Positions 28,130 through 31,485 of a stretch of 45,145 nucleotides of DNA are shown piece after piece. How positions within the stretch are numbered: the stretch's first letter is position 1; every line of letters begins with the position of its first letter. Both the position numbers and the translations under genes were made by a program. The DNA is from a virus. Under the pieces are notes generated by a model. That model searched no databases. It was not told the origin of the DNA and saw nothing but the letters and a program-made list of their open reading frames with translations. The stretch lies in the IMG/VR virus record IMGVR_UViG_3300045988_035404; one strand, given 5' to 3'.

Positions 28130-29401
28130 TTAGTTTATTTTTTCAGCTTTCAGTCCAGTTTCGTCTTCCCAACGCTTGATGGTTCTTTCAACGTATAACG
28201 GGTCAAGTTCCATCCCGTAGTAAATGCGCTCGGTTTTTTCACAAACCATAAGCGTCGAACCTCCACCATTAAAACTATCGAGCACGCGCTCTCCCTTTTT
28301 ACTAGAATTGAGAACACATCTAGCAATCAACTTCAACGGTTTCATAGTTGGATGGATATCATTTCTTACTGGTTTGTCTTCGTAGAAAACACTTGTCAGG
28401 CTACCCTCTTGCATTGTCTTGATATAAGCAATAAGTTCGCCTTTTGTCATTTCTTTCAAGTTGTCTTCGTCTTCTTCAATCACAGTAGCCAAAGAGCGAT
28501 TATCTACAAAATAATGCGACGCTCCATCTTTCCACCCATAGAGACACGGTTCATGTTTCCACTGGTAGTCTTGTCGACCTAAGACGATGCTGTTTTTTAC
28601 CCAGATAATATTCTGTTTTAGCAACCATCCAGTCTCTTTTACTGCAGCTCTAAAATTCAACCCTTCTGAATCTGCGTGCCAGATATAAAAGGCGCCTCCC
28701 GGCTTCAAGTGCTTGTCGGCAACCGAAAATGCGTCTTTCAAAAATTGACGGAAACTGACGTCATCCATGCTGTCATTCATAATCGTCATAGCTTCTTCAG
28801 TCCCCCCCTCATACGCTACGTTGTAAGGTGGGTCTGTGACATATAAATCTATCTTGTTGCCGTCTACGAGTTCCTCCATGTCAGCTATTGACGTGCTATC
28901 ACCACACATTAAACGGTGCCGGCCTAATTGATATATGTCGCCGTACTCAACCGCTGACGTTTGGGTGTCTTGTTCGTTTATTTCTTCTGCATCTTCGGTA
29001 TCCAACTCTTCGTCTTCAAAATCATCCAAGGTGTAATCTTGATCAGTAAAACCAAAGAGTGTCATATCAAGATTGTCGACACTATCAATCTCGCTCAATA
29101 ATAGCTCAATATCCCACTGAGCTATCTCGGCCACTTTATTGTCTGCTAATCTGAATGCCTTGACTTGTTCTTCTGTCAAATCGTCTGCGATGATAACTGG
29201 AACTGTTTTTAGTTTTAGTTTTTTAGCAGCCTTCCAGCGCGTGTGCCCATTGATGATCTCACCGTCTGACGTTGCCACGATTGGCACCTTAAAACCAAAT
29301 TCACTGATGGAATTAGCAACCGGCCCAACTGCTTCATCGTTATTTCTTGGGTTGTTTTCGTAAGGGGTTAGCCACCCTAACGGCTTATCATAGATTTGCA
29401 T
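28130..29401 (-). CDS. ParB-like nuclease domain fused to a DNA methyltransferase (N6A/N4C, PF01555-type)
   Basis: N-terminal ParB-N motif (PYENNPRNN...INGHTR). DPPY motif, then the FNGGGST AdoMet motif C-terminal to it (beta-class order). Confidence 0.85.
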   Translation of the reverse strand: MQIYDKPLGWLTPYENNPRNNDEAVGPVANSISEFGFKVPIVATSDGEIINGHTRWKAAKKLKLKTVPVIIADDLTEEQVKAFRLADNKVAEIAQWDIELLLSEIDSVDNLDMTLFGFTDQDYTLDDFEDEELDTEDAEEINEQDTQTSAVEYGDIYQLGRHRLMCGDSTSIADMEELVDGNKIDLYVTDPPYNVAYEGGTEEAMTIMNDSMDDVSFRQFLKDAFSVADKHLKPGGAFYIWHADSEGLNFRAAVKETGWLLKQNIIWVKNSIVLGRQDYQWKHEPCLYGWKDGASHYFVDNRSLATVIEEDEDNLKEMTKGELIAYIKTMQEGSLTSVFYEDKPVRNDIHPTMKPLKLIARCVLNSSKKGERVLDSFNGGGSTLMVCEKTERIYYGMELDPLYVERTIKRWEDETGLKAEKIN

Positions 29402-29580: not shown

Positions 29581-30030
29581 TTATTCTTCGCAATAATCTC
29601 CTGAAAATACCAGGCATTCGCCGTTTCTGTAGTTCTCAGCAAACTCTAAAATGGCTAGTTCTCTCATTCGATAATATTCACTTTCAGAATATCCAAGGTC
29701 CATATAGACTTCAATGTTGTATTGCTTTCTGTTTCTGCAATAACACTCTATCAATATCTGGCTGTAATGCCTATCTGATAATGCGTTGATAGCTCTGACA
29801 ATAGCTTGTAAGTCTTGTTCAGCGGCCACCTTGCGTGTTACCATGTTTTCGGTCTGACTATGGACCATGCCGTCGAATGATTTGGGTTCTAACGAGAATG
29901 AAGCTGTCACTTTAGGGGCGTATTCCAAGCCCGCTATCCGTGTTAGCATGCGATACCTTCTTAGCACCTTTATAGCTTTCTTTTTAGTTGCGGTTTTATC
30001 TACTTCCGCAAAGAGATTGATACTTGCCAT
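29581..30030 (-). CDS. arpU: ArpU-family late transcriptional regulator
   Basis: 149 aa upstream of the packaging genes. The sequence pattern (RRYRMLTRIAG...) resembles the ArpU/RinA-type family. Confidence 0.75.
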   Translation of the reverse strand: MASINLFAEVDKTATKKKAIKVLRRYRMLTRIAGLEYAPKVTASFSLEPKSFDGMVHSQTENMVTRKVAAEQDLQAIVRAINALSDRHYSQILIECYCRNRKQYNIEVYMDLGYSESEYYRMRELAILEFAENYRNGECLVFSGDYCEE

Positions 30031-30045
30031 GACACCCCTCTTGTG

Positions 30046-30103
30046 TGATATAATAGTTGTATCGTGTTCAAAGAGTGCCGGCCATTGTGTCGGTCTTTTT
30101 TTT
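30046..30103 (+). ncRNA. Candidate short cis-antisense unit opposite the arpU 5' UTR
   Basis: TGATATAAT at 30046-30054, hairpin at 30078-30093 (CCGGC/GUCGG), T8 at 30096-30103, all on the plus strand. Confidence 0.3.
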
Positions 30104-30398
30104 ATTTTAGCTCAAGAAACGTTAAGAGATTTTATTGAAAAGATAGAATACGTATTTATTCTTGGGGTTGTCTCTTGGGCCTTTTATCACCTCCTTTCTA
30201 GCCAAATGACACCAGCAAGGCCTTTGGCTTTGTTTAGTAATGCAAGATATCAATAAGAAAGAGGGTGTTTCACATCCTTTTTTCTTAAATTTGCTGGGTT
30301 TGTTTGGACAAGGTCTGTCAGCTTGTCCGGTGTTAAAAAAGTGTCCAAGCCACTAAAAATCTATATTCATTTTTTTATTTTTAGTGATGACAGACAAT

Positions 30399-30441
30399 GA
30401 CTGGCAAGAGGAATCGAACCCCTTGAGCAACCATTCCAGCC
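30399..30441 (-). ncRNA. T-arm-like structured element, copy A
   Basis: Minus-strand RNA reads GGCUGG-13 nt-AAGGGG UUCGAUU CCUCUU-CCAGUC. It has a tRNA-like T-loop but no cloverleaf. Confidence 0.35.
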
Positions 30442-30736
30442 TAGATATAGTGAAATCATTATCGGGGATATTCCCCTTTCGTTTTTGAAATAATACAAGA
30501 ATTAAGTCGGATGAATTATGGAGATTTCTGACCTATATCTTTTGCAGGCATACGCCTTGGATAATAACGCTACCAGTAATGCGCTTTAGATTGGTAAACA
30601 AAATAAAAAAGGTTCCTCGATTCTATAACTTATTATTTACTGGATTTTGGTAGCATCCACGACCAGACACGCTTCAGCTTGATTTGAATGAAAAAATAAA
30701 GGATTCCTCTTTTCCGTATATAGATTGACTGGTAAT

Positions 30737-30776
30737 AGCTAGGGAGGGAGTCGAACCCTCGTAAACCGTTCTAGCT
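30737..30776 (-). ncRNA. T-arm-like structured element, copy B
   Basis: Minus-strand RNA reads AGCUAG-10 nt-GAGGG UUCGACU CCCUC-C-CUAGCU. It starts at the stop codon of the 236-aa gene. Confidence 0.35.
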
Positions 30777-31485
30777 ACACGCCTAGAGCGTAGGCTTTAT
30801 ATAAGGCTTTTCTGACCGTAATTTTGTTACGTCCTAACTCGCCCTTGGTCCGATATTCGAGTGTGATGCGGTCAACTTCATCGTCCAATCTCTCGCTCCA
30901 TTCGTAGTTATTGAAGACAAAGTCAATAATTTCACTGAATAGCTCTCTTGAAAGTAGCCCTTCCATTTGGATTGCTTTCAAAGGCGTTAGGGCGGCTTTT
31001 TCCGTATAGCACAGATTGAGGGCGTTTTGGGTTTTGTTAGCACTTTTTTGGTTGCACCCTTTAACCTCTCTGATATAGCTATTTAGGTTGTTAGGGTGTT
31101 CCTTGCGCAGTGCTTCCACTTCCTCTTGGAACTGCTTGAATAGTTCTTCTGGCAGTCCTGCGTTGATTTTATCCAAAACTGGGCGAGTGATTGTGCCTCT
31201 CGTATAGTGTTTAGACAGATAGCTTTGAATATCACTGAATAATTCGTCAGAAATAATGCCATTTAGCTCGCTTGCAGTCTTAGGTGATAGCTTCAATCGT
31301 CCCACGACTACGCTATTGAATTTCTGATAAATATTCCTAGCTTGCGCTTCACTGCACTGTCGCACTTCTTGAAAATACTGTTTATAGGAGCCTTTTTTGT
31401 GTGTTTTTCTCAGTGCCGCATGTTCACTGACTAACCGTTGGTATAATTCCTCGGTCAACCCGGAATATTTGTAGGTTTTACTCAT
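30775..31485 (-). CDS. Hypothetical protein, 236 aa, made of two tandem ~95-aa repeats
   Basis: The ATG at 31485 has an AGAGGAG SD and an ATGA overlap with the upstream gene; the track start at 31563 is rejected. Internal duplication: LTEELYQRL...SDELFSDIQSYL versus LPEELFKQF...SRELFSEIIDFV. Confidence 0.75.
   Translation of the reverse strand: MSKTYKYSGLTEELYQRLVSEHAALRKTHKKGSYKQYFQEVRQCSEAQARNIYQKFNSVVVGRLKLSPKTASELNGIISDELFSDIQSYLSKHYTRGTITRPVLDKINAGLPEELFKQFQEEVEALRKEHPNNLNSYIREVKGCNQKSANKTQNALNLCYTEKAALTPLKAIQMEGLLSRELFSEIIDFVFNNYEWSERLDDEVDRITLEYRTKGELGRNKITVRKALYKAYALGV

Follow-up and report, generated by a model that had tools for sequence, protein, structure and literature searches.

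In the mascRNA modules of MALAT1 and MEN-beta and in the TMER units of MHV68, RNase P and/or RNase Z are recruited within a longer transcript, whereby the ends of the flanking RNA are defined, and the small tRNA-like by-product receives CCA. Host RNases likewise cut polycistronic RNA into defined and stabilized mRNAs at structured intercistronic elements, as at the RNase III sites of the T7 early region and in mitochondrial "tRNA punctuation". The current study describes a short phage RNA element that invites comparison with these systems. It is present in two copies, termed A and B, on the minus strand of IMG/VR virus record IMGVR_UViG_3300045988_035404, a 45,145-nt stretch of viral DNA that is referred to here as the window. 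Both copies are found at a non-coding gap between a DUF1340 gene and arpU, a gene of the late transcription activator family, and both are RNA structures that are conserved and that mimic a tRNA in its upper half alone. We refer to them as tRNA-like elements (TLEs). By comparison, the mascRNA and TMER modules are eukaryotic or herpesviral and adopt a full cloverleaf-like fold, while the T7 and mitochondrial cases are functional analogies only, as both enzyme and fold differ in T7 and mitochondrial punctuation employs real decoding tRNAs.

Plant mitochondrial t-elements carry the motif GGTTCRANYCC, and the mRNA ends associated with them have been attributed to RNase P and RNase Z; some of these mRNA 3' ends are found within the reading frames of ccmC and nad6, and excised elements bear non-encoded C/A (PMC1920247). 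Like the t-elements (Forner et al. 2007), TLEs are non-decoding tRNA-like structures in mRNA with the same T-arm motif and an acceptor-like stem, and the cuts inside the ccmC and nad6 frames parallel the stop codon that is located inside copy B. Unlike the phage elements, t-elements are organellar, few in number and heterogeneous, non-canonical cloverleaves, whereas the phage elements, which are known from sequence only, share a uniform minimal architecture without a D-stem or an anticodon arm across several host phyla. A second point of comparison is YrlA, which in M. smegmatis is cut by RNase P and receives CCA (PMC4201824, Chen et al. 2014). It is similarly a tRNA mimic with T-arm and D-loop-like contacts that occurs in bacteria and some phages, but YrlA is a stand-alone non-coding RNA that has a full D-arm and a Ro60-binding helix and adjoins rsr (Ro60), whereas the phage elements have no D-stem and variable neighbors. 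The tRNA-like domain of tmRNA also combines an acceptor stem and a T-arm with a reduced D-loop analogue and no anticodon arm; its acceptor strands, however, lie hundreds of nucleotides from each other, with pseudoknots and a tag open reading frame (ORF) between them.

Results

The window contains the sequence GGTTCGANTCC exactly two times, on the minus strand in each case (30410-30420 and 30747-30757), whereas 0.05 occurrences were expected from shuffled sequence and none of 100 shuffles reached two. Each occurrence lies within the T-arm of one TLE, as delimited by sequence, minimum-free-energy fold and the covariance model R1 described below. Copy B (30736-30777, minus strand) has a 7-bp acceptor-like stem, UAGCUAG/CUAGCUA (30771-30777 with 30736-30742), a 10-nt linker, AACGGUUUAC (30761-30770), and the T-arm GAGGG-UUCGACU-CCCUC (30744-30760), with a bulged C at 30743 preceding the second stem strand. 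Its first three bases are the UAG stop of the DUF1340 gene. Copy A (30398-30442, minus strand) has a 6-bp stem formed by GGCUGG (30436-30441) and CCAGUC (30399-30404), a 10-nt linker, AAUGGUUGCU (30426-30435), and a T-arm (30405-30425) in which a 7-bp T-stem, CAAGGGG/CCUCUUG, closes the loop UUCGAUU. The minimum-free-energy folds of both copies are the proposed minihelices, and neither copy has a D-stem or an anticodon arm. A single fold of 421 nt was also considered and was left unused; it is not significant (z = -1.35) and mispairs both T-arms with each other. The original prediction, made from the letters of the window, had pointed to two related T-arm-like motifs on the minus strand with a covarying closing stem. 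The sequences are as it gave them, now with the limits defined above, and the differences between the A and B closing stems are real and find strong support in the covariation of the wider family.

To place the two copies in a broader context, viral contigs were scanned with the pattern AATGGTN{2,9}GGTTCGAYTCC, which fixes the linker and half of the T-arm and leaves the closing stem unconstrained. At least 120 stretches were recovered, and the family counts given here are lower bounds. When the six bases directly before the linker were compared with the six directly after the T-arm, a perfect closing stem (6/6) was present in 63 of the 130 distinct viral matches listed, as opposed to 0-1 at positions shifted by 8-32 nt. 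At least 75 unique elements have the same architecture with unrelated stem sequences. A typical element starts with the first strand of a 6-7 bp stem and continues with the linker AAUGGUUNNN, a T-stem of 5 bp (7 bp in the copy-A types) with the loop UUCGAYU and a bulge of 0-1 nt, after which the second stem strand follows. Model R1, a covariance model built from 21 seeds, all of them bulge-bearing sequences, gave 97 hits in which 94.6% of cells pair. Their covariation score of 0.861 contrasts with 0.165 for shuffles and with no more than 0.124 for slid partners, and each of the four Watson-Crick pair types is represented at stem pairs 2-7. The constant features are the T-loop UUCGAYU, the G53-C61-type pairs and the GG linker, the conservation of the linker being partly by construction since the loci were picked with a linker-containing pattern. 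The sequence of the acceptor stem is variable, and because it is free, no synthetase identity is conserved. The 6-bp stem is followed by the 3' tail consensus A-Y-W-A, and CCA is never encoded at the 3' ends of the elements.

Copies A and B are the only R1 matches in the window. Copy B scores 58.9 bits (E=2.8e-13), partly by construction as it is among the seed sequences, and copy A, which is outside the seed, scores 23.6 bits (E=0.0011). Both copies have a 6-7 bp stem, an AAYGGUU linker of about 10 nt and a UUCGAYU loop with G-C closing pairs, and both stand in sense orientation between co-oriented genes, as is characteristic of the family. They represent two distinct subtypes, each of which has orthologues of its own, and not a simple duplication in place; copy A orthologues were found at loci L005, L019, L043, L086, L097 and L111. 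Homologous phages thus conserve the motif and its covariation, and the ends and the architecture are sharply defined in more than 70 lineages, which is unlike the shapeless tRNA debris that the original prediction had named as a way in which it could fail.

The same pattern was searched in 185,579 species genomes, in which most matches were chance matches in coding DNA together with real tRNAs. The number of these with the structure of the element is at least about 8-10, indicating that the element is rare in cells and that its viral enrichment is strong. Identifiable hosts and groups include Streptococcus phages, crAss-like phages and a high-GC phage contig (L054), along with a few matches in metagenome-assembled genomes (MAGs) labeled Lactobacillus, Lachnospiraceae and Corynebacterium. 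Accordingly, the presence of the family is evident among Streptococcus and crAss-like phages, and the high-GC contig and the MAG matches suggest that other phyla are included as well.

A number of known RNA classes were compared with the two copies. ARAGORN called no tRNA and no tmRNA in the whole window and Rfam 15 returned no match there at the gathering score, in agreement with the earlier view that the motifs are not full tRNAs. In E-value mode, Rfam found only tmRNA T-arm fragments in the gap, 17-18 nt long and scoring 8-12 bits against a gathering score of 47, and for eight diverse family loci it likewise found no family beyond T-arm fragments. A canonical tRNA was rejected, as there is no Rfam tRNA match even at E<=10 and only 10 nt lie between the acceptor strand and the T-stem. 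The identity of a tmRNA was rejected given that ARAGORN called none and Rfam matched a T-arm fragment only, and ROOL, GOLLD, mascRNA and the viral tRNA-like families were dismissed on these Rfam outcomes. YrlA was rejected on the lack of a D stem-loop and of any Rfam match other than tmRNA T-arm fragments in a library whose inclusion of a YrlA model is unconfirmed; the flanking genes scanned were DUF1340, arpU and a gene for a ParB-methylase fusion, and no TROVE protein is among the recurrent neighbors of the family. A 3'-terminal tRNA-like structure of the TYMV type does not apply to elements that are internal to a DNA phage genome and encode no CCA, and the Rfam Tymo_tRNA-like hit reached 13.7 bits against a gathering score of 40. 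What the copies do share with t-elements at the sequence level is the GGTTCRANYCC T-arm motif together with an acceptor-like stem inside an mRNA or untranslated region.

Full-text literature searches found no description of the element, and in a catalogue of 10,006 viral candidate RNAs, the tRNA-like candidates mentioned are confined to cases in which ARAGORN calls a tRNA as well. Furthermore, the element is unannotated in the public records that were inspected, namely SA-TP2, the Javan phages, YMC-2011, four S. thermophilus phages and six crAss-like genomes.

The genomic context of the family is as distinctive as its structure. The elements share the orientation of their flanking genes, i.e. 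they are on the coding strand, as are both copies in the window. Among 71 distinct elements, 37 have the stop codon of the upstream ORF between -21 and +5 of the stem start, with a peak at stop codons that overlap the stem start (the Streptococcus group, L040, L041/L082 and L089), and 53 have the start of a downstream ORF within 150 nt, at a median distance of about 30 nt. An AUG is situated 3 nt past the element in L089 (2961-3001) and L051 (876-919), where the tails read ACAAUG and ACUAUG, and a cut at the 3' edge of these two elements would yield a nearly leaderless mRNA. The same ACUAUG tail is found in L122 and L100, where the AUG opens no long ORF and the next ORF of at least 50 codons begins 133 and 139 nt downstream.

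Genomes with several copies are common (L054, L062, L089, L040 and L099), and some elements reside within or beside true tRNA gene clusters. In the high-GC contig L054 (60-2630; IMGVR_UViG_3300009508_001595), near-identical cassettes fill successive gaps between small genes, and R1 matches seven elements at this locus. As read in three of the gaps, the cassette consists of a stop codon, about 8 nt, the element, ACGAUUCG, a small hairpin, a Shine-Dalgarno (SD) sequence and ATG. A BLAST search of this array locus against named phages gave no match. A different arrangement was encountered in L056 (930-1800, minus strand; IMGVR_UViG_3300028883_000018), which has at least six near-identical elements 150-200 nt apart, separated by spacers that are almost purely A/C, with AACAUAAC- and AACUUAAC-like repeats and no convincing ORF. 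All-against-all clustering of the ORFs next to 89 elements identified no shared neighbor protein family beyond close relatives.

The crAss-like phages offer some insight into the origin of the element. In cr53_1 (Suoliviridae), an unannotated minihelix scoring 42 bits with R1 lies upstream of the primase gene. At the syntenic site, the cr4_1 sequence matches the Rfam tRNA model at 38.6 bits, with 64 nt inserted into the anticodon arm and AAUGGUA as its D-loop, cr109_1 has a weak tRNA match (23.3 bits), and cr56_1 has a cloverleaf-like element without GG. ARAGORN called no tRNA among the primase-upstream elements of these four genomes, and each of the elements is followed by a closely similar 3' tail that runs up to the primase AUG. 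Since the syntenic site carries such degenerate tRNA versions, the elements look like reduced tRNA genes. Read against the D-loop of the cr4_1 gene, the AAYGGUU linker is D-loop-like, and TLEs are most readily understood as tRNA genes reduced until selection acts on the top half alone, the part that end-processing enzymes of tRNA read, with the linker as the former D-loop. We also observed a non-coding stretch of 150-250 nt before the tRNA-like element in three crAss-like loci (L245:1830-2075, L250:1515-1690 and L251:1500-1650). It contains the conserved blocks GCCUACGCUAGGC and AUAGCGAUACGUGAGUAGCAUGCCGCUAUGUGAG ... GCAUGCACUCACG and looks like a structured RNA, for which Rfam gave no match.

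Comparison with related phages indicates that the copies are maintained as structures. The window derives from a Streptococcus phage of the S. salivarius / S. thermophilus type, the closest record being SA-TP2, which has both copies in flanks that diverge from those of the window. Inside the copies, the changes are structure-neutral only, the linker change included: copy B differs by one G-C to G-U change and an altered bulged base, and copy A by one U-A pair that became U-G. Javan535, YMC-2011 and Javan536 have a single copy, UAGCCAG-AAUGGUAUA-GACGG-UUCGAUU-CCGUC-A-CUGGCU, which likewise starts at the DUF1340 stop codon. Between these phages, the closing stems GGCUGG, AGCUAG and AGCCAG covary, as do the T-stems AGGGG, GAGGG and GACGG. 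The S. thermophilus phages TP-778L, Abc2, CHPC1230 and ALQ13.2 keep the layout and retain the T-loop hairpin, having lost the GG linker. In TP-778L (L246:2198-2236) the first of these is a continuous 12-bp T-loop hairpin (z = -6.3) with the DUF1340 stop UAG in its 5' strand, and a second T-loop hairpin of 4+6 bp follows about 160 nt beyond the first in these phages. Abc2 has only a truncated remnant of the first copy, GUAGCGGUUCGAAAAU (L247:2195-2215), which implies that the first copy is dispensable in some dairy phages, while the second was kept in all four examined. A 191-nt TP-778L module of the copy-A type was detected in 332 Streptococcus phage records, mostly at 80-90% identity and in 305 of the 332 at a coverage of at least 80%; most of the records listed are unannotated there.

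All genes around the gap are on the minus strand. The gap itself is 744 nt (30031-30774) and is flanked upstream by the DUF1340 gene (30775-31485; 236 aa; Pfam PF07067, E=1.8e-78), which has homologues in 336 Streptococcus phage records and a TAG stop codon at 30775-30777 inside copy B. Downstream is arpU (29581-30030), with its ATG at 30030; its homologues are annotated as ArpU or transcriptional activator and its Pfam match to DUF1492 is weak. The original prediction had described this region as free of SD-led ORFs; the only ORFs within it are short and unconserved. Neither a sigma-70-like promoter nor an intrinsic terminator was predicted on the minus strand of the gap, for which reason it is probably co-transcribed with its neighbors, and the transcript that carries the motifs is probably an early/middle minus-strand transcript shared with these genes.

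Several further observations concern the gap and its surroundings. On its plus strand, four terminator-like hairpins were predicted against 0.8 expected and none on the coding strand; such hairpins with T-runs are located at 30077-30104, 30257-30283 and 30464-30476, antisense to all flanking genes. The first of them, GCCGGCCATTGTGTCGGT followed by T8, falls within 30046-30165, a segment of some 120 nt in front of arpU for which many S. thermophilus phages show 76-79% identity. According to a 2026 paper (PMC13575424), RNA-seq reveals an antisense RNA between ORF37 and ORF38 of S. thermophilus phage 2972, in non-coding sequence that might correspond to the gap. In the gene after arpU (28130-29401, minus strand), a ParB N-terminal domain is fused to an N6/N4 DNA methylase (PF02195, PF01555), in the position at which relatives such as SA-TP2 have an HNH endonuclease and then the small terminase. 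A search for plasmid matches found none.

We propose a larger conserved RNA for each copy, in which the copy is the 5' module and a tail forms a pseudoknot with a loop. Copy B is closely followed by the tail ACCAGUC (30727-30733, minus strand), which is complementary to GACUGGU downstream; in the window this partner is GUCUGGU (30662-30668), with one mismatch. Copy A is followed by the tail GUCUGUCA (30388-30395, minus strand), the proposed 5' strand of its pseudoknot, to which the loop (30313-30320) of the hairpin GGACAAG-CUGACAGAC-CUUGUCC (30306-30328, minus strand) is complementary. Of 15 aligned regions from Streptococcus phages, 14 allow the tail GUCUGUC(A) to pair with GACAGAC in the loop of the hairpin, and in the exception, L035, the entire helix is exchanged for ACCAGUC/GACUGGU at the homologous alignment columns, the same helix that is found after copy B in the window and its relatives. 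Because this amounts to a compensatory swap at the level of a whole helix, it supports the pseudoknot. Across the 15 regions, the CUGACAGAC hairpin has two-sided changes at six of its seven stem pairs and a nearly invariant loop.

Other parts of this larger RNA are conserved to different degrees. A long-range helix between CCAGCAA (30291-30297) and UUGCUGG (30212-30218), spanning 30212-30297 on the minus strand, encloses a hairpin and then a U-run. In relatives, CCAGUAA is combined with UUACUGG or UUGCUGG, and with only one variable position the support for this helix is moderate. Further downstream is AGAAAGGAGGUGAU (30186-30199, minus strand), a putative strong SD-like sequence without a start codon at a usable distance. 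We take it to be an almost perfect 14-nt complement of the 16S rRNA 3' end. The sequence GGAGGUG(A/G)U is retained in Javan535, YMC-2011, Javan536 and the S. thermophilus phages with no conserved ORF after it, and this orphan site could act as a "Stab-SD"-type stabilizer that binds ribosomes, or it could belong to a switch. Copy A is preceded by a long imperfect hairpin (30443-30540, minus strand), predicted with the closing strands AGAUAUAG (30533-30540) and CUAUAUCU (30443-30450) and the inner hairpin GGGGAAUAUCCCC. It folds as originally described, and relatives keep the pairing with other sequences (GAUAAAAU/AUUUUAUC plus GCGA/UCGC, and GGAGAAAUAUCUCC). The repeated AAAGGWTTCCTC and ATTKACTGG blocks that had been pointed out in the gap are also present and match modules that are conserved in related phages; in these relatives, both the hairpin and the blocks are maintained through compensatory changes.

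Discussion

The conserved features of TLEs allow several suggestions to be made regarding their function. In our estimation, the chances are about even (a probability near 0.5) that the elements recruit host tRNA-processing enzymes to punctuate phage mRNAs and define their ends. Most likely, the acceptor-like stem would stack on the T-arm and the GG of the linker would dock on the T-loop, in the manner of a D-loop, to form a tRNA elbow. RNase P, RNase Z and CCA-adding enzymes all recognize the tRNA elbow (PMC4810234), and enzymes of this kind would fit the elements well since the constant features are those that elbow-reading enzymes read. Host RNase Z would presumably cut directly 3' of the element and RNase P at its 5' edge where this is allowed, and the CCA-adding enzyme might act upon the released minihelix of 42-45 nt. 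All Streptococcaceae tRNA genes are CCA-less and RNase Z cuts right after the discriminator base (PMC8549757), a format that the elements fit. Documented precedents for a signal of this kind are the plant mitochondrial t-elements, including their cuts within reading frames, and M. smegmatis YrlA illustrates that a tRNA mimic of bacteria can undergo RNase P cleavage and CCA addition.

Applied to the window, such cleavage would separate the DUF1340 and arpU portions of the polycistronic RNA and set the RNA ends. For copy B, a 3' cut only is favored because a 5' cut would remove the UAG stop, in which case the upstream mRNA would end in the element as a structured 3' cap. The 5' end newly created by cleavage (ACCAGUC after copy B, GUCUGUCA after copy A) could pair with the downstream hairpin loop, thereby hiding the end from 5'-dependent decay and starting the conserved leader RNA before arpU.

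A number of observations weigh against this interpretation. The evidence at hand concerns structure, family, genomic context and an origin from tRNA genes, whereas every enzymatic step is something that we infer. The reliable closing stem is only 6 bp because pair 1:72 is unpaired in 38 of 79 elements, and the elbow lock cannot be indispensable, given that the S. thermophilus phages lost the GG linker and kept the T-loop hairpin. In several lineages the stop codon is inside the 5' strand, such that a 5' cut would create mRNAs without a stop. A stabilizing 5' hairpin after the element was considered as a general feature and rejected: a clear hairpin is seen in about 30% of cases only, and with a mean z of -0.70 the 45 nt that follow the element show no more structure than the flank preceding it (-0.94). 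Finally, the L056 array resembles a multi-copy small-RNA gene cluster more than it does intergenic punctuation.

A broader form of the same idea is that phages of several bacterial phyla share a dedicated, as yet undescribed class of minimal tRNA mimics as a general "tRNA punctuation", employing the essential RNase P, RNase Z and CCA-adding enzyme of the host to cut and stabilize mRNAs, with CCA-minihelices released in bulk and doubling as acceptor-end decoys against defense systems. In some cases, this could entail the removal of stop codons or the creation of near-leaderless mRNAs. We consider this broader form, all parts included, to be tentative and on balance doubtful.

The L056 array leads to the main alternative, in which the minihelix would be released as a product in its own right. 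As a trans-acting mini-tRNA that acquires CCA after processing, it would titrate or decoy a host factor reading the acceptor/T-arm half of tRNA. Candidate targets would include a defense toxin acting on tRNA 3' ends by modification or cleavage, or an enzyme of tRNA modification or processing. The six or more near-identical L056 copies in A/C-rich, ORF-free spacers would be readily understood in this way, as would the frequency of several copies per genome, the copies inside tRNA gene clusters and the strong enrichment in viruses over cells; moreover, an RNA without an anticodon would not interfere with decoding, which suits a harmless decoy. Most copies, however, occupy short gaps between co-oriented ORFs with no room for a promoter or terminator of their own, and the window has two copies only, of different subtypes. 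With acceptor sequences unconstrained, the target would have to read shape alone, and anticodon nucleases are impossible as targets; the neighbor clustering also revealed no co-occurring defense system or partner protein. We regard such a decoy as unlikely. It is rather less probable that the elements are modules of a cis-acting arpU leader RNA of about 250-700 nt, in which the tRNA shape serves folding or factor binding instead of cleavage, for example in anti-termination, RNA stability or translation control. In its favor, the elements are followed by conserved, covarying structures (the pseudoknot, the CUGACAGAC-loop hairpin, the CCAGYAA/UURCUGG helix and the orphan SD-like GGAGGUGAU), and the 191-nt module is kept in 332 Streptococcus phage records, always directly upstream of the late activator gene. 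Dozens of unrelated phages nevertheless carry the element before primase, scaffold or small early genes without the additional modules, and because it precedes unrelated genes in unrelated phages, the tRNA-like part should have a role that is independent of context. A leader function is also compatible with processing rather than exclusive of it, and would suit a decoy as well.

The two remaining explanations assign the motifs no function as RNA. That they are non-functional remains of decaying phage tRNA genes or tRNA-derived att fragments might be suspected from the degenerate tRNA-like genes of varying completeness at the crAss-like syntenic site, from the truncated first copy of Abc2 and from the general abundance of tRNA gene fragments beside integrated elements. 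Covariation largely refutes this, since the same precise architecture with unrelated stems recurs in more than 70 lineages with 94.6% of cells paired, and the derivation from a tRNA would have required two separate deletions. The differences between the window and SA-TP2 are structure-neutral within the elements against a background of diverging flanks, the acceptor stem has both of its strands, which sets it apart from att fragments, and the elements of S. thermophilus and crAss-like phages are far from any annotated integrase; decay is accordingly a very improbable account. Least probable of all is a site at the DNA level, such as a replication origin, a packaging site or a protein-binding platform, to which the T-arm likeness would be incidental. 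The long non-coding stretch with its many repeats and inverted repeats and the predicted terminator-like hairpins on the plus strand would be in line with such a site, but the motif is always sense relative to its flanking genes, its compensatory changes include G-U pairs that are meaningful only in RNA, and the genome ends of cos-type relatives are located beyond the HNH gene, outside the gap. When the roles put forward in the original prediction are reviewed in this light, a processing signal fits the genomic contexts best and a decoy small RNA is possible, whereas a pac or regulatory DNA site is unsupported.

If TLEs do punctuate phage mRNAs, an RNA module of about 42 nt that is recognizable from sequence would be added to the phage toolkit, and it would represent a bacterial and viral equivalent of mitochondrial tRNA punctuation and of the plant t-elements. 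A processing signal of this type should be hard for hosts to escape because RNase P and RNase Z cannot be lost. The element is also a source of false or missed calls for tRNA finders, and it could find practical use as a phage sequence marker or as an insulator and processing part for synthetic operons. In Streptococcus phages, the version directly upstream of the late-gene activator, present in 332 dairy and oral records, may bear on the switch from early to late gene expression in the phages of S. thermophilus, which are of industrial importance.

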